This document shows positions 2,998 to 38,025 of a stretch of DNA of 64,000 bases, piece by piece. Below the pieces are notes generated by a model. The model made no database searches and was not told the DNA's origin. It saw nothing but the letters and a program-made list of their open reading frames with translations. The stretch is from assembly GCA_963722885.1 (NCBI GenBank), contig CAVROS010000015.1, forward strand, positions 125,282 through 189,281, written 5' to 3'. This DNA is from an uncultured delta proteobacterium. GTDB lineage: Bacteria; Myxococcota_A; UBA9160; UBA6930. Made by a program: the position numbers and the translations under genes. Position 1 is the first letter of the stretch; each line of letters begins with the position of its first letter.

Positions 2998-4345
2998 ATG
3001 GAGATGCAGGAAGTCATCGACAACATGTTCCTCCCGCTTCCCAGCGTCCCTCCGATCTTCATCACGAAGACCGAGGGAGTGTATCTTCACACCAGCTCCG
3101 GGCACAGGATCATCGACGCTTCGGGCGGACCCATGGCCGTCAGCATCGGATACGGTCGTCCGGAGATTGCCGAGGCGGCGGCTCGGGTGCTCCGAGAGGT
3201 CTCCTACGTGCTTCCCATCTTCGCCTCCGAAGCCAGGATCGAGCTGGTGAAACGGATCAAGAAGGTGCTGCCCGAAGAGCTGCGCAACGTCTACTTCTGC
3301 TCGGGCGGGTCGGAGGCGAACGAGGCGGCCATCAAGCTCGCCCGCCAGTACCAGGTGCTCGCCGGGCGGGAATCCAGATACAAGGTCATCTCCCGGAATC
3401 TCAGCTACCACGGCATGACCTTCCTGACCCTGTCGATCGGCGATGTGAAGATGAGACAGAGGGATTTCCTTCCCATGCTGTGGGAGAACCCTCGAGTCGA
3501 AGCCTGTTACTGCTATCGATGTCCCTTCGGAAAGGAGTATCCGGGCTGCGACATCGATTGCGCGCTGCAGCTGGAAGAACGGATCCTCGCCGAGGGCCCC
3601 GACACGGTGGTCGCATTCGTCGCCGAGCCGATCGTCGCCGCCGCCGGCGGGGCGCTGGTGCCTCCTCCCGAGTACTTCCCGATCGTCCGCGAGACCTGCG
3701 ACAAGTACGACGTCGTCTTCATCGCCGACGAAGTGGTGACCGGCTTCGGGCGGACGGGGCGGAACATGGGGATGGACCACTTCGGGGTCGTTCCCGACAT
3801 CGCCACCTTCGCCAAGGGCGTCAGCAGCGCCTACGCCCCTCTGGCGGGAATGGCGGTCAGCAACGAGCTCGTCGCGCTGTTCCAGGAGCGGGAGGCCGAG
3901 TTTCAACACCTCTACACGTTCTCGGGACATCCGCTCGCCTGCGCCATTGGCGCCGAGGTGATGCGGATCATCGAAGACGAGAACATGATCGCGCGGGCGG
4001 AGCAGACGGGGAAGTACCTGCAGGAGAGACTGCTCCAGCTGATGGATCTGCCGATGATCGGCGACATCCGGGGCAAGGGGATGCTCTGGGCGATCGAGTT
4101 CGTCGAGGACAAGGACACCAAGGCCCCGTTTCCGAAGGAGAAGAACGTCAAGATGGACACCATCGTCCAGTGCCTGCTTGAAGGGCGTCTTCTTGTATCC
4201 GGGGTACTACGAAGACGAGCAGGGGCGTGGCGACCAACTGATGATCGCGCCGCCGTTCATCATCACCGAGGAGCAGATCGACGAGTGTCTCGAGATCCTC
4301 CGCGGGGTCCTGACCGACTCGTATGACAGGTGGTGCGCCGCCTGA
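2998..4345 (+). CDS. class III (omega-type) aminotransferase, PLP-dependent; 1-nt frameshift near 4185 affects the last ~50 codons
   Basis: Class III aminotransferase blocks are present (SGGSEANEAAIKLAR, FIADEVVTGFGRTG, FAKG). A GAGGAGG RBS lies 8 nt upstream of the ATG at 2998. After 'gaagggcgtc' the conserved C-terminus (FLYPGYYEDEQGRGDQLMIAPPFIITEEQIDECL...) continues in the +1 frame and ends with TGA at 4343-4345. Confidence 0.8.
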
Positions 4346-4433: not shown

Positions 4434-5724
4434 GTGATGCGGGATAGGACAGGGGATCTGGTGCCGAGAGACGGGAAGATCTTCTACGGCTGGTGGATCG
4501 CTGCAACCTTCTTCGTCACCCTGTTCATGGCCGCATCCATTGGAGCCACGCATTCGGTCTTCTTCAAGTCCATCGTCGGAGAGTTCGGCTGGAGCCGCAC
4601 GTCGTTCTCGACCGTGCTGTCGGTCAACGCGGTGATCGGCGCGCTGCTGGCGCCGCTCTGGGGACGGTTGGTCGATCGGCATGGTCCGCGCGGTGTCGTG
4701 CCGGCGGGGGCGGCGATCGTGGGCCTGAGCATGGTGCTGCTCAGCAACATGCGAAGCATGCTGGAGGCCTACCTGCTCTACATTCTGCTGGCGTTCGGAG
4801 CCGGCGGACAGTCACTCGTCCCCATCAGCACCGCGCTCTCCCAGTGGTTCAAGCGCCGCAGGGGCCTGGCGATCGGAATCACCCTGGTGGGAGCTGGCGT
4901 GGGCGGCGTTGCACTGGCTCCCATGGCCAGCGTTCTGGATGGCGAGTTCGGTTGGCGCACCGGCTACCTGGTCTTCGGTATCGCGATATGGGTCGCCCTG
5001 ATCCCGCTGTTGCTCCTCGTCCTCCGACGCCGGCCCGAGGACATCGGCCTGCTGCCGGATGGGGATGAGCGACCGAGTGCGGCGGCGGATGCCGAGGAGC
5101 CGGCGGAAGCGCCGCCCGAGGCCGCCGGCCTGAGCCTGGGAGAGGCGGTACGGACGCCGGCCTTCTGGCTCCTCGCGCTCGGCTTCATGCTGCCGATGTT
5201 CGCGGGGAGGGCGATCATGATCCATCTCGTGCCCGTCATCACCGACGCGGGCATCTCACCGCAGAAAGCGGCGACGGCCTATGGCATGACCGTCGGGCCT
5301 GAGCATCGTCGGGCGGTTCGGCTTCGGATATGCCGCCGACAAGTTCAGCAAGCGGCACATCTTCGCGCTCTGCTACCTGATCCAGGCGGTGGGAATCTGC
5401 TTTCTGATCGGGCTCGAAAGCATGGGGCCGATCGTGCTGGTGGGATTCATCGTCGTCTTCGGGTGCAGCTATGGCGGCGGATTGTCGCTGGCTCCCCTGC
5501 TGATCGCCGAGAACTTCGGCATCGCGTCGATGGGGGTGATCTTCGGCGCACTGGGCATCGTGGCCATGGTAGGGGGGGCGCTCGGGCCGATCTTCGCCGG
5601 GGGCGTCTACGACGCCATGCAGAGCTACCACATGGCGTTCATCGTCTTTCTGGCCGTCCAACTCGTCGCCTCGATCGCAATCCTGAATTGTCGGCCGGCG
5701 GTGGCAACGAGTCCGGGCGACTGA
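4434..5724 (+). CDS. MFS transporter (oxalate/formate antiporter-like); 1-nt frameshift near 5298
   Basis: There are twelve hydrophobic segments. The N-terminal ~285 aa are in ORF 4434..5852 and the C-terminal half is in ORF 5389..5724. The join 'gtcgggcctgagc' reads ...GMTVG|LSIVGRFGFGYAADKFSKRHIF... if one C is removed. Confidence 0.75.
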
Positions 5725-24393: not shown

Positions 24394-24511
24394 CACCGCC
24401 TCCGTTCGATTTCGGGGTCTCCCGGGTTTCTTCTCAGAGGCCCTCTGGATCCGGGCCGACGGGAGAATCCCCCTGGGGGATTGCCGTCTCTCCTCCGGAG
24501 ACGGGAGCAAA

Positions 24512-24540
24512 ACTATAAGCTCCTCGGCGGAGATTTGCAA
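24512..24540 (-). promoter_or_regulatory. sigma-70-type promoter upstream of the sigma factor gene: TTGCAA-17 nt-TATAGT (minus strand), in a ~60-nt AT-rich island
   Basis: The hexamers are read directly from the sequence (plus-strand coordinates 24535-24540 and 24512-24517). An inverted repeat AAAACTAT/ATAGTTTT overlaps the -10 and the UP region. Confidence 0.4.
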
Positions 24541-24561
24541 TATCTTTATTTAAATAGTTTT

Positions 24562-25599
24562 TTATTTCTTGTGGGAGCGGCCGAGCCCGGAGTCCGCGAG
24601 CTCCTCCGCCAGCCGCAGGATCTCCTCGCGAAGCTCGAGCATGGCGAGCCAGCGGGGCGGGATGGCTGCGTCGCCCAGGGCGGCGCCAAGCAGGTTGCCC
24701 GCAATGGCGCCGGTGCTGTCGCTGTCGCCGCCGTGATTGACGGCCAGGCGAAGGGCGCTCTCCAGGTCGGGCGCGGCCAGGGCGCAGAAGACCGCGATCG
24801 CCAGCGCCTCCTCGGCCACCCAGCCCTCGCCGAGCGATTCCACGTCCTCCGGGAAGGCTCCGCCGCGTTTTTCCACGGAGAGGGAGATCGCGCGCTCGAC
24901 GGCGGCTGCGCACTCCTCGTGGCCCGGGTGCCGGCGTAGCTCCTCCAGGGCCTCCTGGCAGGCGGCGCGAAGCGGCGTTCCCGCCGCGGCCTCGCGGATT
25001 GCCAATGCCTGGTAGCCCGCGGCCAGGAAGCCGGTGGGGTGGCCGTGGGTGATGGCGGCGATCTCGCAGCCAGCGGAGAAGGGATCGCCGATTTCGCCGG
25101 CGAGACCGACCGGAGCGATCCGCATCACGCCCCCGCAGCCTTTGCTGCTGTTGAGAGGCTGCTCAGCGCTTCCCATCCGGGGCGCCCGCAGGGCGGAGAG
25201 GCAGGTGTTGCCCGGGCTGCGGCGGCTGTGGAGCGCCTCGAGGCCGAGGAGCCAGCCCTCGTCGGTGCGCTCGAAGGTTGGATGGGCCGAGCGCTCGCCC
25301 TGGGTGCGGAGCCAGCGCAGGTAGGCGCGGTGCACCGATCGCACCAGACCCGAGCGGCCCGAGAAGGCGGGATCGCCGGCTGCCAGGATCAGCCCCTCGG
25401 CGGTGAAGAGGGTCATCTGGGTGTCGTCGGTGATGGCGCCCACTCTGCCAAATGCCGGCGCGGGTTCCCGGAGCCCCTCCGAACCGAAGCGGGCGCGGAT
25501 CTCGCGGAGCGACTCGAACTCGATCGGAGCGCCCAGGGTGTCGCCCACCGCGCCGCCCAGCAGGGAGCCGCGGATGCGATCTCGGGGCAGCTGGCTCAT
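24562..25599 (-). CDS. ADP-ribosylglycohydrolase family protein (DraG-like)
   Basis: LLGGAVGDTLGAPIEF and HGGDSDSTGAIAGNLLGA are the canonical ARH N- and C-terminal motifs. Confidence 0.9.
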   Translation of the reverse strand: MSQLPRDRIRGSLLGGAVGDTLGAPIEFESLREIRARFGSEGLREPAPAFGRVGAITDDTQMTLFTAEGLILAAGDPAFSGRSGLVRSVHRAYLRWLRTQGERSAHPTFERTDEGWLLGLEALHSRRSPGNTCLSALRAPRMGSAEQPLNSSKGCGGVMRIAPVGLAGEIGDPFSAGCEIAAITHGHPTGFLAAGYQALAIREAAAGTPLRAACQEALEELRRHPGHEECAAAVERAISLSVEKRGGAFPEDVESLGEGWVAEEALAIAVFCALAAPDLESALRLAVNHGGDSDSTGAIAGNLLGAALGDAAIPPRWLAMLELREEILRLAEELADSGLGRSHKK

Positions 25600-30016: not shown

Positions 30017-31062
30017 TCACTGCCGTGTGCGCTTCTTCCCCGCCTTCGGCGCCGTGCCCTCCGCGCCCTCGGGCTCCTCACAGACGTCTCCGGTGCCGTC
30101 GCCGTCTGCGTCGGCCTGATCGGGGTTCTTGACACGCGTGCAATTGTCGTCGATGTCGAGGACGCCGTCGCGATCGTGATCCGGTGAGGAGGCGAGGATC
30201 TTCTCGATCTGCTCCCGGTAGGCGTGGATGTCGACGGCGTAGGTGGCGTTGCCGTAGACGCTGAGATTCGCCGGCTGATTCGGGTGCTGGGAGATGGTGA
30301 TCATGATGCCGACCAGCTCCCATTCTCCGTCGCCGTTCTTGGCGAAGACGGGTCCGCCGGAATCTCCCGAGGCGGCCTGGGCCTCGTGCGGCGTGGGAAG
30401 GCCGTCCTCGAAGAGCGTCGCGAAAGCGCGGCTCACGCGCTTCCCGGTCCGCGTGCGCAGAGTCGACGGCGGCGATGCGGTTGGTTCCCCAGCGCATCGC
30501 TCTTCCCGGGCCGAGCTGGTAGCCCGCATGGGAGGCGCCGCCGAGCGGTAGGATCGTCCAGGATTGGCTCCACCCCGTAAGCGACGGGCTGCGATCGAGA
30601 CCGTTGCCGATCATCACGACCCGGGTCTCGGTACGCGGTGCGCTGCGTGGCCAGCCGCACTGGCGGAAGATCGGGAGATTCGCGGAGCTGAAAGAGCTGG
30701 AGATCCGCCTCGAGCGCCGGGCCGGTGGAGAGGCGATGCCGGATCTTCCCCTGGACCGCTTCGAAGAGCCGATCTCCCAGCTGCAACTCGCGCCCGCCGG
30801 TGTGCCCGGCGGTGAGCACCCAGTGGTTTCCCAGAAAGACGCCCGTGGTCTTCCCGAGCACTCCGACGTTGCTCCATCCGGGATCGTCGGCCGGCGCGCC
30901 GGTGTTGCCGCTTCCGTCACCCGAATCGATCACGACCGCGATCGCGGGCCGCACACCGAGAGCGATCAGCAGAATCAACCAGGGCACCCAGGACGCCGAT
31001 CGGGCGAATCTCTCATGGCGGGGCGAAAGACCTCGAGCGGGTTCGAGCTCAGAATACCCCAA
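30017..31062 (-). pseudogene. secreted trypsin-like serine protease with C-terminal thrombospondin type 3 (TSP3) Ca-binding repeats; 2 frameshifts (~30632, ~30490)
   Basis: The His region LTAGHT, the Ser region GDSGGPVF and the TSP3 repeats DRDGVLDIDDNCTRVKNPDQADADGDGTGDVC are distributed over three frames. Confidence 0.65.
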
Positions 31063-31447
31063 TGCCGAGGTAGATCAGGAAGGCGCCAAACAGCGCACCG
31101 ATGACGCCGAGAACGCGCAGCACGGCCGGATCGTCCACGGCGTCCATGAACCCGAGGGCGATCTTCTGGTAGAAGGACGTGAAGATCAGCAGAAACACGG
31201 TGGCGAAGAGAAACAGCCAGCCGAGAATCGAGATGACCCAGGCCGCATCCTGCTCGGCGCCGTGTGCAGCGCGAGTCATTGCCAGACCGAGTGCGGCAAC
31301 GAAGACGCTCATGATGCGAATCCGCGCATGGCTGGCGAGAAGCCACCGGTAGGCTGCCACCGTGACCGAAGGCGCGACGACCATCGGACCCCGCGCCACG
31401 ATCATGACGGCTCCGGCTACCACGCTCACCAGTGCCAGATGGTCCAC
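31049..31447 (-). CDS. small membrane protein (4 TM), partner of SPFH protein
   Basis: The GTG start lies 4 nt after the SPFH stop, with the GAGGAG RBS formed by the last two SPFH codons. The ORF is hydrophobic. Confidence 0.5.
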   Translation of the reverse strand: MDHLALVSVVAGAVMIVARGPMVVAPSVTVAAYRWLLASHARIRIMSVFVAALGLAMTRAAHGAEQDAAWVISILGWLFLFATVFLLIFTSFYQKIALGFMDAVDDPAVLRVLGVIGALFGAFLIYLGIGVF

Positions 31448-31451
31448 GGGA

Positions 31452-32549
31452 TCACTCCTCTCGCTTCTTCTCGGGCGTCTCCGCACCCTCACCCTTGGCC
31501 AGGGCCGCGATCCCAGTCACGGCGCCCAGGCCCATGGTCTCGACGGCGGAGCTGGGGACGATGATCATCGATCCCTTCTGGCGGATCCCCTCGTAGATCA
31601 TGTTCATGGCGCGCAGGTGGAGGGCGGTAGGATCGTCCCGGTACTGGTCGGCGGCAGCCGCGAACTTCTCGGCGATCTCGCTCTCGGTGGTGGAGAGGAT
31701 GATCCGTGCCTGCCGCTCGCGCTCGGCCTGCGCGCGCTTCGACATCGCCTCCTCGAGGGCTTCGGGGATCACGACGTCGGTGATCTCGATGGACTGGATG
31801 GTGATCCCCCAGGCGTTGGTCTTCTCGTCGACCCTGTGCTGGATCTCGTCGCAGAGCTTCTCGCGGCTGCTGAGCAGGTCGTTGAGCTCGTGCTTGCCGA
31901 CCGCGTCGCGAAGCGCGGCCTGGGCGGAGAGGATTACGGCGTGGGCGTAGTCCGCGACCTCGAGCACCGCCTTCTCGGCGCTCCAGACCAGCCAGAAGCT
32001 GATGGCGTCGACGTAGACGGGGACCGTGTCGAGGGTGAGGATCCGCTCGGCGCGGAAGTCGGTGGCGCGCACCCGCTGATCGACGAAGGCCTCGATCCGG
32101 TCGACGAAGGGCAGGATCAGGAAGAGCCCCGGTCCGCGCAGCCCGCTGTACCGCCCCAGCCGCAGCAGGATGGCCTTCTCCCACTGGCTCGCGACCTGCA
32201 CCACGCAGGAGAGGATCGCGGCGAGCGCGATCCCCGTTACCAGAAGCAGGATCTTCTCGTCGGGAAGGACCAGCTTGAGGGCGATGGCGATCAGCACCAC
32301 GCCGCTCAGGATCTGCTCCCAGCGCCTTCCCATGAACAGGCTCAGGATCATGAAGATCGCGGCGACCCCGGTGGCGATGACGAGGTCGTCGGAGAGGTTC
32401 CCCTGCCGGTACACCAGGGCCGCGGTCAGGCCGATGCCGGCCAGGAGCACGAAGGCGTTGAGCGGGCCCCAGGCGAAGTGCGACTTGAAGATCGGCAGGG
32501 CGGCGAGCTTCTGGAAGGGCTCTTTCCAGTCGAAGGTCTTCTTCATCAT
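31452..32549 (-). CDS. SPFH/band-7 (stomatin-like) protein with N-terminal multi-TM extension
   Basis: The band-7 core is AILLRLGRYSGLRGPGLFLILPFVDRIE...TLDTVPVYVDAISFW, with a coiled-coil tail. The ATG is separated by 1 nt from the GntR stop. Confidence 0.85.
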   Translation of the reverse strand: MMKKTFDWKEPFQKLAALPIFKSHFAWGPLNAFVLLAGIGLTAALVYRQGNLSDDLVIATGVAAIFMILSLFMGRRWEQILSGVVLIAIALKLVLPDEKILLLVTGIALAAILSCVVQVASQWEKAILLRLGRYSGLRGPGLFLILPFVDRIEAFVDQRVRATDFRAERILTLDTVPVYVDAISFWLVWSAEKAVLEVADYAHAVILSAQAALRDAVGKHELNDLLSSREKLCDEIQHRVDEKTNAWGITIQSIEITDVVIPEALEEAMSKRAQAERERQARIILSTTESEIAEKFAAAADQYRDDPTALHLRAMNMIYEGIRQKGSMIIVPSSAVETMGLGAVTGIAALAKGEGAETPEKKREE

Positions 32550-32550
32550 G

Positions 32551-32934
32551 TCAGCTCTCCTCTCTGAAGTTCTGGAGCGCCTGGATGATTTCACCCAGCT
32601 CGATCCCGTAGGCGCCCGCGCGTCCCACCACGTCCTTGCAGAGCGCGGTCAGCACGCGCTTCTTCTCGTCGGGCGCGATCGTGACCTCGGCATCGCTGAT
32701 GAAGGTGCCCGTGCCCTGCTGCGTCTCCAGGTTCCCGCGGATCTCCAGCTCCTTGTAGGCCTTGATGATGGTGTTCGGGTTCACCGAGAGCTCGACAGCG
32801 AGCTGGCGCACCGTCGGCAGCTGGGTGCCGGGGGGGAGATCGCCCCGGGCGATCGCGTAGAGGATCTGCGAGATGATCTGGCGGTAGATGGGGACGCCGG
32901 AGTGATGATCCAGACTGACGCTGAATTTCGCCAT
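32551..32934 (-). CDS. GntR-family transcriptional regulator, YtrA subfamily (short C-terminal domain)
   Basis: A 127-aa protein with a winged HTH (PIYRQIISQILYAIARGDLPPGTQLPTVRQLAVELSVNPNTIIKAYKELE). Confidence 0.9.
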   Translation of the reverse strand: MAKFSVSLDHHSGVPIYRQIISQILYAIARGDLPPGTQLPTVRQLAVELSVNPNTIIKAYKELEIRGNLETQQGTGTFISDAEVTIAPDEKKRVLTALCKDVVGRAGAYGIELGEIIQALQNFREES

Positions 32935-32944
32935 CGCGAGAATC

Positions 32945-33676
32945 CTACCTCACCCTGGCGCGGTGGATCCGCGCCAGCAGCGCGATTCCGCCCAGACACA
33001 GGGCGGCCGCGGCGAGCGGCTCGACCCAGGCCGGATGGCCGGGCCAGTGGACGGCCAGTCCGGCGAGCTGCGCCTCCCCGGCGTAGGCGCGGAGCAGGCC
33101 GAGGTACACCCAGTAGTGCGGACTCCACGCCAGCAGGATCTGCCACGGGGAGGGCACCACGAAGACCAGCGCGGGCACGATCGACATCGAGCTCACCAGC
33201 TTGGCCACCGCCATCCCCTCGATCTTGTTGGCGGCCGCCACGCCCAGCATCAACATGCCGAGTGGCGCTGCCAGCGAGCCGACCGCCAGCATCAGCAGGA
33301 AGCCGGGGAGGTCGGCGACGGGCTGACCGAAGACCGCTGCGGCCACCAGGCCGAGGGCGCAGGAGAGCAGGCCGGTGGTGATCACCAGGTAGCTGAAGTG
33401 CGCCGCCCGCGAGAGCGGGAGCACCCGCAGCAGGAGCAGCGTCTGGCGCTCGCGCTCCTCGATCAGCCCGAATCCGAAGATGATGGCGGCGATCGAGCCG
33501 CCCAGTGTGACGAGCCAAGGCGCTACGTAGAGGGCCAGATTCTCGACGGGGATCCAGGGGACGCCGAGCCGCGCGGCGATCGCCACCAGTGGCATGTACA
33601 CGCACATGTAGAGCAGGAAGCCGTCCCGGTAGATCCCGCGGGCATCCTTCCGGAGCAGCGCCCCGACCTTGCTCAT
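32945..33676 (-). CDS. ABC-2 type transporter permease
   Basis: Six TM segments. The gene overlaps the upstream permease gene by 4 nt. Confidence 0.7.
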   Translation of the reverse strand: MSKVGALLRKDARGIYRDGFLLYMCVYMPLVAIAARLGVPWIPVENLALYVAPWLVTLGGSIAAIIFGFGLIEERERQTLLLLRVLPLSRAAHFSYLVITTGLLSCALGLVAAAVFGQPVADLPGFLLMLAVGSLAAPLGMLMLGVAAANKIEGMAVAKLVSSMSIVPALVFVVPSPWQILLAWSPHYWVYLGLLRAYAGEAQLAGLAVHWPGHPAWVEPLAAAALCLGGIALLARIHRARVR

Positions 33677-34389
33677 GCTCGCTCCAATCGCTCGCGCACC
33701 CGCTCCTGAAAGGAGCGCCGCGCCCAGCGGAACGCGACGACGTTGTAGCCGAGCAGCAGCGCGGCGTAGAGGGCGTAGTGGAGTGGATCGGGATCCGGGC
33801 GGGCCAGGTTCGCCAGCCCGAAGAGCGCCGCGTCGCTCGGAATCCACACGAAGGCCAGCCGCGGCGCCAGCTCGAAGTACGAGAGGTAGGGCAGCTGGAT
33901 CAGCACCATCGCCGGCATCAAGCCCGCGACCAGGAATCGCGTGAACTCCGAGAAGCGGGCGGAGAGTCCGAGTCCCAGGAAGCCCGCCAGTGTGGCGGTC
34001 AGCAGGAGCGGCGGGAACAGCAGGACCAGGCGCAGATCGACGCCGAGTACAAAGCCCTGGATCATCATTCCCGCCAGTGTCGCCACCAGCGCCGAGGCGA
34101 GGACCATGGCGAAGACGTACTCGCCGCTCCGTAGCGGTGTCACGGCCAGCGCGGTCACGCTGCGATCGCCTCGCTCGAGATAGGCCTGGGCGGCGACCAA
34201 TGTCAGCGCCAAAGTGCCCGGCTCACCGAGCAGGAAGGCGGGGACCAGCCATTCCACGTACTGCTCCGGGATGGCCAGGCGGAAGCCCAGTACAGTCAGC
34301 AGGGCCATTCCCAGGTAGACGTGGGGGAAGCGGTTGCGCCACTGGGCGAGCAGGAACAGGTGCACCGCGTTCGCGACGCGACCCCTCAT
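33673..34389 (-). CDS. ABC-2 type transporter permease
   Basis: Six TM segments. There is an ATGA overlap with the ATPase gene. Confidence 0.7.
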   Translation of the reverse strand: MRGRVANAVHLFLLAQWRNRFPHVYLGMALLTVLGFRLAIPEQYVEWLVPAFLLGEPGTLALTLVAAQAYLERGDRSVTALAVTPLRSGEYVFAMVLASALVATLAGMMIQGFVLGVDLRLVLLFPPLLLTATLAGFLGLGLSARFSEFTRFLVAGLMPAMVLIQLPYLSYFELAPRLAFVWIPSDAALFGLANLARPDPDPLHYALYAALLLGYNVVAFRWARRSFQERVRERLERA

Positions 34390-35267
34390 TCGAGCAGCCC
34401 CCTTCCGGTCATCTTCAGAAACACGTCCTCGAGGGAGGGCTCCAGCGTGTGGATGGTCTGCACGTCGTGATCGCGGACCCACTCGATGAAGCGGTGCTTG
34501 CCGAGCGGGTCCTGGATGGGGAAGTCGCGGATTTCCACGCCGATTCCATTGACCGCTTCGACCCGCGCGATCTTCCGGGTGTGGCGCAGCTTTAGCTGGC
34601 GCGGCGTATCGAGGGCGCTGATCTCGCCCGCCACCAGGAAGGCGACGCGATCGCAGAGCTCATCCGCCACGGTCATGTTGTGCGTGGTCAGGAAGACTGT
34701 GGTTCCCGATGCGGCCTTCTCGCGGATCAGCTCGCGCACCTGCACCGCGTGCTCGGGATCCTGGCCCGCGGTGGGCTCGTCGAGGAACCAGAAGCGCGGC
34801 CGGTTCATCAGGGAGCGCGCCACCACCAGGCGCATCTTCATCCCTTTCGAGTACTGTGCGACGCTGCGACGATCTCCCACCGGGAGGTCGAGGCGCTCCA
34901 GCAACTCGGAAGGCTTCTCGGTCGGCACGTCGAAGAAGCCGCCGTAGAACTCCAGGTTCTCCTCCGCCGTCAATTTCTCGTAGAGGTTGGGGAACTCGAA
35001 GCAGACGCCGATCCGGTTGTAGAAGTCGTCGCCCATGCTGCGGAGATCGCCCCCGAAGACCTCGACCTCTCCCCGATAGCCGGGGAGGATCCGCGTCAGC
35101 AGCTTCTGGGTGGTGCTCTTTCCCGAGCCGTTGGGGCCGAGAAAGCCGAAGATCTCTCCCTCGCGGATCTCGAAGTCGAGTCCGCGCAGGACGGGATCCG
35201 GTGAGCCGGGGTAGCGGTAGCGGAGTTCGCGAACCCGGAGCACCGTTTCGAGAGCGCTGTCGTCCAT
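34386..35267 (-). CDS. ABC transporter ATP-binding protein
   Basis: Walker A is GPNGSGKST, the signature is YSKGMKMRL, Walker B is FWFLDEP, and the H-loop is present. Confidence 0.95.
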   Translation of the reverse strand: MDDSALETVLRVRELRYRYPGSPDPVLRGLDFEIREGEIFGFLGPNGSGKSTTQKLLTRILPGYRGEVEVFGGDLRSMGDDFYNRIGVCFEFPNLYEKLTAEENLEFYGGFFDVPTEKPSELLERLDLPVGDRRSVAQYSKGMKMRLVVARSLMNRPRFWFLDEPTAGQDPEHAVQVRELIREKAASGTTVFLTTHNMTVADELCDRVAFLVAGEISALDTPRQLKLRHTRKIARVEAVNGIGVEIRDFPIQDPLGKHRFIEWVRDHDVQTIHTLEPSLEDVFLKMTGRGLLE

Positions 35268-35310
35268 CGTCCCCTCTTCTCCCCTGGGGGCGTCCAGGCT
35301 TGGCGATTCG

Positions 35311-35348
35311 GAGAAATAATGTACTAGTTAACTAGTACATTATTTCTC
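35311..35348. promoter_or_regulatory. 38-bp perfect AT-rich palindrome GAGAAATAATGTACTAGTTAACTAGTACATTATTTCTC in divergent promoter region; candidate operator
   Basis: The palindrome is perfect over 38 nt at about 26% GC in a roughly 68% GC context. It lies between the divergent ABC ATPase (minus strand) and SDR (plus strand) genes. Confidence 0.6.
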
Positions 35349-35395
35349 TTGTGTCAAGAGGTAGTCTCTCGGTCCGAGATCGAGGGAGAAGAGCG

Positions 35396-36172
35396 ATGAG
35401 AGTCAAGGACAAGGTGATCGTCGTGACCGGCGGCGCCAGCGGCATCGGCAAAGCGATGTGTCTGCGCTTCCACCAGGAGGGCGCGCGCGGCATCGCGGTC
35501 GCGGACATCAACGAGCCGGGCACGCGAGAGGTCGCGGAGAAGATCGGGGGGCTGGCGCTTCGCTGCGACGTCTCCGTCGAGGCCGAAATCATCGCGCTGG
35601 TGAAGGAGACCGAGCGGCGGTTCGGTCCCATCGATCTCTTCTGCTCCAACGCGGGCATCGGAATCACCGACGAGCCGGGAGGGATGGCCAGCTCGGCCCC
35701 CAACGAGAGCTGGCAGAAAATCTGGGAGGTGAACCTGATGGCCCACGTCTACGCGGCCAGGGCGGTCCTGCCCGGCATGATCGAGCGCGGCGAGGGCTAC
35801 CTGCTCAACACCTCCTCGGCCGCTGGCCTCTTGAACCAGATCGGCAGCGCCTCCTACTCGACCACCAAGCACGCGGCGATCGGCTTCGCCGAGTCGCTGG
35901 CCATCACCCACGGCGATGACGGCATCCGCGTCTCGGTTCTGTGTCCGCAGGCCGTCGCAACGCCGATGATGGAGGGCAAGGATCACTCTCCCCAGGCGGG
36001 GGACGGGATGCTGCAGCCCAGCGACGTGGCCGAGTCGGTGATCCAGGGCCTGGAAGAGGAGCGGTTCCTGATCCTGCCCCATCCCGAGGTCCTGACCTAC
36101 ATGCAGCGCAAGACCTCGGACTACGATCGCTGGCTGAAGGGCATGCGTCGCTTCCGACAGCAGTTCCTCTGA
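35396..36172 (+). CDS. SDR-family oxidoreductase
   Basis: [10 protein letters not shown] glycine motif, NAG motif (CSNAGIG), and the catalytic YxxxK (YSTTKHA). An RBS GAGGGAGAAG is present. Confidence 0.9.
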
Positions 36173-36177
36173 GCTTC

Positions 36178-36242
36178 GGGGACGTTGTTGAACATTCAAT
36201 TTCCGGGCCGGGCCCGGAAATTGAATGTTCAACAACGTCCCC
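36178..36242. repeat. 65-nt perfect palindrome (32-nt arms) GGGGACGTTGTTGAACATTCAATTTCCGGGCC-G-...; repeat family member between convergent genes
   Basis: Read directly from the sequence. It starts 6 nt after the SDR stop and ends 3 nt before the stop of the convergent thiolase-like gene. Confidence 0.65.
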
Positions 36243-36245
36243 GTT

Positions 36246-37718
36246 TCAGCGGGGGGTGAAGTTGCCCTCGCCGTCGATCTCGACGGGGCGGCCGCAGAAC
36301 TCCTCGCTGGTCATTGCGGCCATCGTGTCGGCGTCGCGGGTGTTGGCCCAGGTGCGACGGCCGTCCTCGATCAGGCAGGCGGCGTGGCCGATCTCCGGTC
36401 CCTCCAGGCCGTGCATGACGGTGTAGGACTCGATCGTCGCCGGCCCCTGGTGATCGATGCGGACCTGGCGGCGCGGCAGCGGGTCGACCCGCTCCTGAAG
36501 GTTCTCGTAGCGGAAGGGCCCGGCCGGGGGCTCGGTGGAGTAGACGCCGAAGGCGTGCTTGGTGAGGTAGCCTCCGTTCGCCGTCACCAGACCCTTGCTG
36601 CCGGGGTCGGCGCGCAGCACCTCCACCATCGTGGCGTTGGAGTGCATCACGTAGTCGTTGAGCGGACCGCCGCCGAAGGTGAGACCGCCGGTCACGGTGA
36701 GCTGGCGGTCCTCGCCGATCCCCAGCTCCTGGGCGGCGACCTGTACCGCCGAGGGGAAGCAGCTGTAGACGTCGATGTGGGCCAGCTCCTCGATCGAGGT
36801 CTCGGCCAGCTCCAGCGCCCGGGAGCCGGCGATCCGGATCGCCGGAGAGGAGTGCAGGTCGGCTCGAGTCGAGACCGTCGAAGAATCGTGCGCTTCGGTT
36901 CCGGCATGGAGGTAGACCCATCGCTCCTCGCCGATGCCGGCTCTGCGGGCGGCCGCCGCCGAGCAGAGAATCAGGGCCGCGCCCTGGTCGACCCGGTTGT
37001 TCGAGTTCATCAGCTTGGGGTAGGGGAATCCGATCATCCGGTTGGAGGGCGAGGTGGTGCGGATCTCCTCGGCGGAGAGCGGCTCGCGCAGCCAGGCGTG
37101 GGGATTCTCGACGGCGACCGCGTTGAAGCGCGCCCAGAGCTCGGAGATCCGAATCAGGTGCTCATCCAGGGACTCGCCCCGCGCATGGCGGATGGCGTTC
37201 TCGAAGATCGGGTAGAGCTGGATCGCCCGGACGATGTCCCGTGCGATCTCCGCCTGGTGGTTCATGGGCTCTTCCGGCGCGATGGCGAGGTCGGGCGTGC
37301 CGGGAGCCTCGCTGAAGGAGAGCTTGACGCCGTTTCTGCGCGCCCTGGCCGAGCTGTTTCCGACCTCCGCTCCGGTGATCACCGCCACCTCCAGCTCGCC
37401 GCGCTGGATCGCCAGCGCGGTCTGGTTGACGGTCGTCTGCACCATGTTCCCGCCCCAGGGTGTTCCCACGGTCTGGGCTCCCGGGGCACCGATCCGCTCC
37501 GCCACCACCCGCCCCGGGTCGCCGTACTTCCAGATCCCCCGGATCACCCGGACGGAGTTCGCCGCGCGCAGCAGGTCGCGGCTTCCGGCGTCGTCCGCCG
37601 CCTGCTCGACCGCGGCGATCATCATCTCCAGGGGCTCGGCCCCCTCCCGGGGGTCCGCTACGCGCTGCTCGATCTGCCCCACGCCCACCACGACGGGAGC
37701 TCTGGGATCGGGGGTCAA
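36246..37718 (-). CDS. thiolase-like protein (SCP-x/non-decarboxylating thiolase family)
   Basis: PVVVGVGQ N-terminal motif, thiolase C-terminal domain blocks (CFPSAVQVAAQELG, TGGLTFGGGPLNDY). A TTG start after a GGAGAAGG RBS is proposed. Confidence 0.75.
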   Translation of the reverse strand: MTPDPRAPVVVGVGQIEQRVADPREGAEPLEMMIAAVEQAADDAGSRDLLRAANSVRVIRGIWKYGDPGRVVAERIGAPGAQTVGTPWGGNMVQTTVNQTALAIQRGELEVAVITGAEVGNSSARARRNGVKLSFSEAPGTPDLAIAPEEPMNHQAEIARDIVRAIQLYPIFENAIRHARGESLDEHLIRISELWARFNAVAVENPHAWLREPLSAEEIRTTSPSNRMIGFPYPKLMNSNNRVDQGAALILCSAAAARRAGIGEERWVYLHAGTEAHDSSTVSTRADLHSSPAIRIAGSRALELAETSIEELAHIDVYSCFPSAVQVAAQELGIGEDRQLTVTGGLTFGGGPLNDYVMHSNATMVEVLRADPGSKGLVTANGGYLTKHAFGVYSTEPPAGPFRYENLQERVDPLPRRQVRIDHQGPATIESYTVMHGLEGPEIGHAACLIEDGRRTWANTRDADTMAAMTSEEFCGRPVEIDGEGNFTPR

Positions 37719-37791
37719 GCTGCCTTCTCCATTCGCGCGAGCTGGATTCGCAGGAGCGTGATCGCTGGGAGCTCGTCGCCCGGGATGCGCG

Positions 37792-38025
37792 TCAGGAGCA
37801 GCCCGTACCCGCTCTCTCGCAGCCGCCGCAGGTCGGTCCCGCGAAGCTCTCGCATGCGGCCGCCTCTGCACCGGTGGCGACGCCTCCGACGTTGTGAGCG
37901 CTCAGGGTCTTGCTGAGCTTCCCGCCATCGCCGGTGGGGCAGTCCTCGAGGGGCGGATCCGACAAGCGCTGCAGGGCCTCGACGGTCTGGCCGCAGGAAT
38001 CACAGATGTACTCGTAGATCGGCAT
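37792..38025 (-). CDS. FmdB-family zinc-ribbon protein
   Basis: The N-terminus MPIYEYICDSCG....CPTC is the FmdB/CxxC_CxxC_SSSS signature. The gene lies directly upstream of the thiolase-like gene. Confidence 0.65.
   Translation of the reverse strand: MPIYEYICDSCGQTVEALQRLSDPPLEDCPTGDGGKLSKTLSAHNVGGVATGAEAAACESFAGPTCGGCERAGTGCS

Follow-up and report, generated by a model that had tools for sequence, protein, structure and literature searches.

A 38-bp AT-rich palindrome as the candidate operator of a YtrA-type GntR regulator whose operon also encodes an ABC exporter and an SPFH protein

What purpose is served by a perfect 38-bp palindrome of AT-rich DNA between two divergent genes of a genome rich in guanine and cytosine (GC)? 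The question is raised by positions 35311–35348 of a stretch of 64,000 nucleotides of contig CAVROS010000015.1, from an uncultured delta proteobacterium; this whole stretch is referred to as the window. To the left of the palindrome, an operon on the minus strand encodes an ABC transporter, a GntR-type regulator and an SPFH membrane protein; to its right, an SDR gene is read from the plus strand. A first-pass annotation had seen in the palindrome a strong candidate for the autoregulatory operator of the GntR protein, which it called YtrA-type, and had mentioned a recombination or nuclease target as another possibility. The operator reading is supported by phylogenetic footprinting and by the YtrA architecture of the regulator, and we consider the palindrome very probably to be the operator of the operon-encoded, 127-residue YtrA-subfamily GntR repressor, which would thereby control its own synthesis.

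The palindrome

The element, GAGAAATAATGTACTAGTTAACTAGTACATTATTTCTC, was found by a repeat search to consist of two arms of 19 nt (35311–35329 and 35330–35348), 100% complementary and separated by a spacer of 0 nt. Its GC content is 10/38 (26%), against 66.9% for the whole window, confirming the perfect repeat and low GC content that the first-pass annotation had reported. No other perfect palindrome in the window comes near it in length, the second longest having arms of only 10 nt and being GC-rich. Calculated from the base composition and 64,000 possible centres, the chance expectation for a palindrome with 19-nt arms is 1.8 × 10−6; in 30 block-shuffles of the window, the longest perfect arm measured 7–11 nt and never exceeded 11. 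Restriction-type subsequences are present inside it (SpeI, ACTAGT; HpaI, GTTAAC; RsaI, GTAC).

The palindrome lies roughly midway in an intergenic region of 128 bp. There are 43 nt between it and the ATG of the ABC ATPase gene (35267, minus strand), and 47 nt between it and the ATG of the SDR gene (35396, plus strand); the distances of 44 and 48 nt given earlier are right as offsets. Half-site and 20-mer searches of the window, allowing three mismatches, found no second copy of the palindrome or its half-sites. Scanning the window with a weight matrix of the site gave 51.6 bits for the palindrome and 0.6 for the next, unrelated match, and revealed no second site.

Conservation of the site across loci

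Two routes led to the homologous loci: close homologues were looked up by exact protein, and a GntR alignment was used to scan one genome per species. The species scan provided 80 loci, with GntR relatives 47–98% identical to the protein of the window and belonging to at least seven phyla; the locus labels include Myxococcota (‘delta proteobacterium’), Bryobacterales and other Acidobacteriota, Gemmatimonadota, Spirochaetota, Bacteroidota, Planctomycetota and Fibrobacterota. For a test free of circularity, only the half-sites of the window were used (TGTACTA-N6-TAGTACA), and their best match was sought in each locus of 5–10 kb. In 74.3 of the 76 loci in which the GntR gene comes first, the best match is located 13–79 bp (median about 50) upstream of this gene, with 0–4 mismatches (median 1). 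Forty scrambled half-sites, used as a control, reached a mean of 8.5 of these 76 loci. The near-identical scramble TGATCTA reached up to 46 of them, and scrambled AT-rich motifs are in general found upstream of the GntR gene more often than at random.

All four loci that, like the window, begin with the ABC genes (L009, L010, L013 and L014) have the site upstream of the ABC ATPase gene. When spacings of 2–11 bp were allowed, the half-sites were 6 bp apart in 57 of the 57 loci matched. Each homologous locus has one site, and as this precedes the ATPase gene in ABC-first loci and directly precedes the GntR gene where the ABC genes are absent, it follows the transcription unit of the regulator. 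Thus, in L004, L011 and L089, relatives without ABC genes and with GntR proteins 85–88% identical, the same promoter-plus-operator block directly precedes the GntR and SPFH genes, while in L007 and L013 (73% identity) the block precedes the ABC ATPase gene, with a TetR gene as divergent neighbour. The motif stays with the GntR operon whether the ABC genes or the SDR gene are present or not. The first-pass annotation had suggested looking for the half-site near the operons of relatives; it stands before the GntR operon in about 80 loci.

Some of these loci show features of their own. Gemmatimonadota loci contain further half-site copies in direct orientation (TTGTACTA / TTGCACTA), either 8 bp upstream of the main palindrome or overlapping it (L016, 1147–1188; L018, 4899–4940; L022, 4937–4978; L040, 4928–4969; L076, 4943–4984). 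Their second-best matrix scores are 20–33 bits, and they resemble the ‘additional half-sites’ of GntR operators (PMC4494728). In L007, other AT-rich palindromes, distinct from the TGTACTA motif, occur beside the TetR gene, AAAAATGAATCAATTCAATTTT and the nearby AAAAATGAACGTATTCATGTT (3374–3395 and around 3423–3443); they are presumably the TetR operator. The GC-rich L010 (CAZTOU010000034.1) is labelled ‘uncultured Spirochaetales bacterium’, but the L010/L001 locus is 82–91% identical at the protein level to Myxococcota/‘delta proteobacterium’ loci, and the label is probably wrong.

Core operator and outer arms

Per-column information from 79 distinct sites delimits a candidate core operator of 24 bp, AATGTACTAGTTAACTAGTACATT (35318–35341), with the consensus A-n-TGTACTA-n-T-nn-A-n-TAGTACA-n-T. 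A distance of 17 bp separates the critical G and C of the half-sites, G35321 and C35338. Over the family as a whole, no information is contributed by the outer 7 bp of each arm, and only in the closest subclade does the dyad extend to 19–22 bp per arm (38–44 bp). The 38-bp element can therefore be kept as a candidate extended operator, in line with the operator reading of the first-pass annotation, but the functional core common to the family appears to be 24 bp and the perfection of the repeat is lost even at 98% identity.

This loss is seen in the nearest relatives, where the substitutions in the element are private and asymmetric. The element is AGAGAAATAATGTACTATTTAACTAGTACATTATTTCTCT in L001 and L010 (91% identity), L009 (98% identity) has GTAATAGTTGAC instead of GTACTAGTTAAC in the window, and in L014 the flanks of the element have diverged. 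Perfect symmetry is thus peculiar to the source genome, and these private asymmetric substitutions indicate a natural, evolving element rather than a cloning scar. Symmetric double changes do occur, at positions 9/30 and 5/34, distinguishing the window type GAGAAATAA from the L011/L089 type CTAGAGAGATAG; this co-variation follows the lineages of the regulator. Within the core, the frequency of complementary pairs equals that expected from independent conservation of the columns, indicating that the core is selected for its sequence, as for recognition by a protein, and not for pairing.

The outer arms were also considered as further copies of the core half-site, which was rejected, as GAGAAATA is unlike TTGTACTA. 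The two outer stretches of 7 bp probably add contacts or accommodate a second, weaker dimer.

The regulator

The GntR protein is encoded at 32551–32934 on the minus strand, as the fourth gene of the operon in the source genome. Residues 17–79 match Pfam PF00392 (E = 9e-16). An AlphaFold2 model of the 127-residue protein, with a mean predicted local distance difference test (pLDDT) score of 87, contains a winged helix-turn-helix (helices 16–29, 42–49 and 53–65, beta-hairpin 69–79) followed by exactly two C-terminal helices (88–108 and 113–126). YtrA-type proteins are recognised by a length of about 120–130 residues and a reduced C-terminal domain of around 50 residues made up of two alpha-helices. 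The GntR winged helix-turn-helix, the length, the two-helix C-terminus, the closest structures and the ABC genes in the operon all agree with membership of this subfamily.

Sequence matches in the PDB obtained with phmmer are all YtrA-type (3by6, 4ham, 3neu, 6sbs, 4r1h, 3tqn and 2du9/2ek5), and the top Foldseek matches in the PDB (4ham, 6sbs, 3neu, 4r1h, 3by6 and 2ek5) align over 115–121 columns, the full length of the protein. The YtrA-type assignment made from the sequence at first pass is borne out by both domain structure and these matches. The best NCBIfam matches are to the Rv1152 and PmtR families, both below the cut-off: 74.8 bits against 170 for Rv1152 (NF053730), and 67.4 bits (E = 1e-18) against 200 for PmtR (NF047563). 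By these scores the protein is related to both families and a member of neither.

Promoter context and proposed mode of action

A −35-like box, TTGACA, is present at 35352–35357 on the minus strand and is the putative −35 element of the operon promoter. On the operon strand it is 3 nt before the palindrome and 17 nt before the hexamer TAGTTA at the dyad centre (35329–35334, minus strand), a weak −10 candidate read from the sequence. The distance of the box to the core is conserved in relatives, with TTGAC at the same position in L001, L004, L009, L010, L014 and L091, and TTGAT in L011 and L089. In L007 and L013 the TTGAC box is one base further from the core, and in L012 and L093 this position is taken by a weaker TTGnnn only (TTGCTT and TTGCCG). 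The central hexamer in homologues is TATTTA, TAGTAT or TAGCTA.

In the spirochaete and acidobacterial loci the layout is shifted by about one helical turn, so that TTGACA abuts the left half-site; in spirochaetes, the right half-site also holds a −10 sequence, TACAAT, at a spacing of 17 nt. In both layouts the operator would overlap the core promoter, the classic geometry for repression by occlusion. Bryobacterales and other Acidobacteriota loci (e.g., L032, L035, L050, L053 and L072, around 4940–4970) have TGTTCTA as promoter-proximal half-site and TAGTACA as the distal one, with the −35 box fused to the former, GCTTGACTGTTCTA; this asymmetry is probably imposed by the overlap with the promoter.

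A homodimer of the GntR protein would place one winged-helix domain on TGTACTA (35320–35326) and the other on its reverse complement TAGTACA (35333–35339), leaving the AT-rich centre of the operator free to vary. On the operon strand, TGTACTA is promoter-distal, over the expected transcription start, and TAGTACA lies in the promoter spacer; the half-sites would thus flank the −10 position and cover spacer and start region, directly downstream of TTGACA. As the palindrome spans the expected −10 and transcription start, the bound repressor would occlude the promoter, blocking RNA polymerase and making the operon negatively autoregulated. Judging by PmtR, MbrR and Bacillus subtilis YtrA, what releases the repressor is probably stress on the membrane or envelope, or an amphipathic compound that is exported, and release might proceed through sequestration of the repressor on the transporter ATPase.

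Several points weigh against this interpretation. A strict sigma-70 and terminator scan of 35200–35450 called no promoter and no terminator, and the candidate −10 is a poor match to TATAAT; because of this, the promoter assignment and the occlusion geometry are drawn from the conserved −35 box alone. The weight matrix was built from the same loci that were later scanned with it, and is circular in this sense, the non-circular test being that with the window half-sites only. An unlinked factor could recognise the same conserved site, and binding, promoter occlusion and the release signal are all inferred steps.

Alternative explanations

The palindrome could instead be bound by another protein, nucleoid-associated or an unlinked regulator, or be no more than an AT-rich promoter or UP-type element. 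Nucleoid proteins are drawn to AT-rich stretches of a GC-rich genome, and the enrichment of scrambled AT-rich motifs upstream of the GntR gene, TGATCTA in particular, fits such a view. Two specific 7-bp half-sites with a fixed spacing of 6 bp across phyla, always beside this GntR orthologue, do not, and symmetric co-variation at positions 9/30 and 5/34 that tracks the lineages of the regulator also argues for the cognate protein. As the half-sites furthermore have the GT...AC pattern expected for GntR/YtrA proteins (PMC4494728), we regard another binder as quite improbable. Even less credit can be given to a role of the palindrome through nucleic-acid structure, whether as a cruciform in the DNA or as a hairpin in the RNA of the 5′ leader, where it could be an attenuator or a processing site. 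A stem of 17 bp is predicted, with a DNA free energy of −14.9 kcal/mol (z = −8.9), and close relatives show the symmetric double changes in the outer arms; but complementarity in the core is exactly what independent columns predict, for which reason selection of the core as a hairpin was rejected, and single substitutions in L001, L009 and L014 are left unpaired. With a transcription start at the place indicated by the −35 box, the hairpin would not be transcribed in full. An Rfam scan of the site gave one hairpin-like match only, which at 20.3 bits (E = 0.2) falls short of the gathering score of 55.8, and thus no family at threshold. An intrinsic terminator was rejected, the stem being AT-rich and situated between divergent gene starts, with no terminator-like site called. 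A structural role is thus very unlikely.

The SpeI, HpaI and RsaI sites and the composition, very atypical for the genome, might suggest a recombination or nuclease target, what is left of a mobile element, or an artefact of cloning or assembly. The element is present once in the window, though, and GTTAAC and ACTAGT are not conserved while the half-sites are, leaving the recombination or nuclease target suggested at first pass unsupported. A repetitive extragenic palindrome, a miniature inverted-repeat transposable element or a terminal inverted repeat was rejected on the same single copy in the window and single site per homologous locus. There is no adjacent integrase or transposase, and a blastn search of the site and its flanks against the 72,556 plasmid records of PLSDB returned no match. 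The first-pass annotation had allowed for a vector or cloning scar, but versions that diverged naturally are present in independent metagenomes and metagenome-assembled genomes. All of these readings are extremely unlikely.

The operator of the operon-encoded GntR repressor remains our preferred explanation. A related question is whether this operator also represses the divergent SDR gene, acting in both directions. The central position of the site in the intergenic region, 47 nt from the SDR start codon, would allow it, and a speculative −10 candidate of the TAnnnT type, TAGTCT (35362–35367), unchanged in L009 and TACTCT in L014, would place the −35 region of the SDR gene within the right arm of the palindrome. 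No SDR −35 box can be recognised, however, and divergons are reportedly very rare among YtrA regulons (PMC4494728). The SDR gene is divergent in three related contigs only (L009, L014 and the P0006 contig); it is not at this position in L007/L013, in any of the GntR-first loci, or in L001/L010, where a VWA/FHA gene at a distance of 568 bp is the divergent neighbour. The divergent promoter region shared with an SDR gene, as first described, is thus real in the window but involves a lineage-specific neighbour, and joint regulation is a tentative proposal, somewhat doubtful on present evidence.

Comparison with other YtrA-type systems

The literature on YtrA-subfamily operators describes unusually long palindromes of about 24 bp with GT and AC far from the centre, usually as a single site before a single operon that typically encodes an ABC transporter, divergons being rare (PMC4494728; PMC6746942, citing Rigali 2002). 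The element at 35311–35348 has these features, a long palindrome with a core of around 24 bp, distant GT and AC and an AT-rich context, and the single site precedes the operon of its own regulator, itself of about 127 residues with a two-helix C-terminus; like typical YtrA operons, the operon in the window also holds ABC transporter genes. The site fits the YtrA pattern in length, symmetry, 17-bp G-to-C spacing and position, and on these grounds we place it among YtrA-type operators. It departs from the usual layout in that the regulator is the fourth gene instead of the first and the dyad extends to 38 bp. In contrast to the surveyed YtrA regulons, the constant partner is an SPFH gene (77/80 loci) and not ABC genes (13/80). 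The group is absent from the survey of Suvorova et al. (2015), in which 0 delta-proteobacterial and 0 Bacteroidetes YtrA regulators were analysed (PMC4494728); the part of its supplements that was available returned for the motif only FadR-type DgoR sites (TTGTAGTACAA).

PmtR of Staphylococcus aureus is autoregulated, encoded with an ABC exporter, and gives a 36-bp DNase footprint over the transcription start (PMC5080381). The 38-bp dyad is comparable to this footprint, and both regulators are YtrA-type proteins encoded with ABC exporter genes. The protein of the window is no PmtR orthologue, however (67 bits against the cut-off of 200); pmtR is the first gene in S. aureus, the PmtR system has no SPFH gene, and its effectors, phenol-soluble modulins, have no known counterpart here.

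A closer parallel to the gene content is provided by MbrR of the MbrR-MbrAB system of Streptococcus salivarius, a YtrA-like repressor that recognises a palindrome with critical G3 and C20, controls ABC exporters and a flotillin (SPFH) and is released by sequestration on the ATPase (bioRxiv 10.64898/2026.02.18.706565). The same 17-bp G-to-C spacing is found in ATGTACTAGTTAACTAGTACAT (G35321 to C35338), a comparison of G3/C20 geometry only, as the operator sequence is given neither in the MbrR preprint nor in the text of the B. subtilis ytr paper. ABC exporter genes and an SPFH protein are likewise associated with a YtrA-type repressor in both. In S. salivarius, though, the gene for the flotillin is poorly conserved and transcribed as a unit of its own, whereas here the SPFH gene is a constant operon partner; and sequestration on the ATPase, shown for MbrR, is conjectural here, where most orthologous loci are without an adjacent ABC ATPase gene. 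In the literature, we found no link between a YtrA regulator and an SPFH gene besides the MbrR preprint.

YtrA of Sulfolobus acidocaldarius binds a 32-bp inverted repeat, in which weaker secondary half-sites add affinity to a core motif (PMC6746942). This core-plus-outer-arm layout is similar to that of the palindrome; the archaeal regulator also controls its own membrane-protein operon, and its structure, PDB 6sbs, is among the top fold matches. The archaeal core, however, is only 14 bp long, the dimer being compact, and the promoter is of the archaeal type, with a BRE (the element recognised by transcription factor B) and a TATA box.

Operon genes and partners

The minus-strand operon is tightly packed, with stop and start codons of adjoining genes overlapping or abutting. 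It starts with a DrrA-like ABC transporter ATPase gene (34386–35267; Pfam PF00005, with an NCBIfam drrA subfamily match below cut-off), followed by two ABC-2-type permease genes identified by Pfam, one for 238 residues whose start overlaps the stop of the ATPase gene (33673–34389) and one for 243 residues (32945–33676). The GntR gene comes next, then the gene for an SPFH/Band_7 membrane protein of 365 residues (31452–32549; Pfam) and one for a conserved protein of about 132 residues (31049–31447), probably part of the same operon. The divergent SDR gene (35396–36172, plus strand) is an adh_short member according to Pfam, and its pairing with the operon is lineage-specific. Pfam thus upholds the gene calls of the first pass, from the ABC_tran ATPase and the two ABC-2-type permeases to GntR, SPFH/Band_7 and adh_short.

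The SPFH gene comes after the GntR gene, on the same strand, in 77 of the 80 loci; of the three loci where it does not, one is a truncated contig. Only 13 of the 80 have an ABC ATPase gene nearby, located upstream in loci of the Myxococcota subclade and downstream in those of spirochaetes. What had been described as an ABC/GntR/SPFH operon is therefore correct for the genes present in the window, but the conserved partner of the regulator is the SPFH gene and not the ABC genes. GntR proteins 82–88% identical occur both without the three ABC genes (L004–L006, L011 and L089–L092) and with them (the window, L001, L009 and L014). In the source lineage the exporter cassette lies between the operator and promoter on one side and the regulator gene on the other; as the promoter-operator block is kept in both layouts, the cassette has apparently been gained or lost precisely at this point.

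Other features of the window

Downstream of the operon, a trypsin-like/TSP_3 gene (30023–31011, minus strand) aligns in three frames (−2, −3 and −1) to a single open reading frame of 333 residues in L001. Two frameshifts are implied, and the gene is either a pseudogene or affected by indel errors in the assembly. The second-longest perfect palindrome, CCGGCGATCCGGATCGCCGG (36826–36845; 10-nt arms, 80% GC), lies inside an open reading frame of 563 residues (36225–37916) without a Pfam or NCBIfam match. A second AT-rich island, ATTTGCAATATCTTTATTTAAATAGTTTTTTATTTCTTGT (24533–24572, in the context 24480–24580), has 15% GC and is the only other place in the window so far under the genomic GC content; its operator-matrix score is about 0. 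It is situated between convergent open reading frames, ending at about 24518 (plus strand) and 24562 (minus strand), and just upstream of it, at about 24485–24505, a GC-rich hairpin is present (CCGTCTC-TCCTCCG-GAGACGG).

Implications

Taken together, the observations may be combined into a broader but unlikely proposal, in which the unit is not the ABC operon but a previously undescribed cross-phylum module of a YtrA-like repressor, an SPFH membrane scaffold and a TGTACTA-N6-TAGTACA operator, with representatives in Myxococcota, Acidobacteriota, Gemmatimonadota, Spirochaetota, Bacteroidota, Planctomycetota and Fibrobacterota. The repressor, lacking a ligand pocket, would sense the state of the membrane via its SPFH or ABC partner, through sequestration like that of MbrR; different lineages would have inserted exporter cassettes between operator and regulator gene, and the 38–44-bp dyad of Myxococcota would reflect a higher-order complex, for instance of two dimers.

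In itself the site is ordinary, what would be a textbook autoregulatory site of a YtrA-type repressor, with binding deduced from the sequence. The analysis adds the limits of the 24-bp core, a likely promoter and the association of GntR gene, SPFH gene and operator across phyla. For an uncharacterised exporter/SPFH operon of an uncultured Myxococcota-like bacterium, a precise candidate operator, with G35321 and C35338 as critical positions, and a likely promoter can now be proposed. Together with an SPFH gene, operator and regulator are conserved as a pair in many phyla outside earlier studies of GntR/YtrA regulons. The pair may help to establish when bacteria express their SPFH proteins, and may serve as a further system in which the recently proposed control of YtrA repressors by sequestration on a transporter could be studied.

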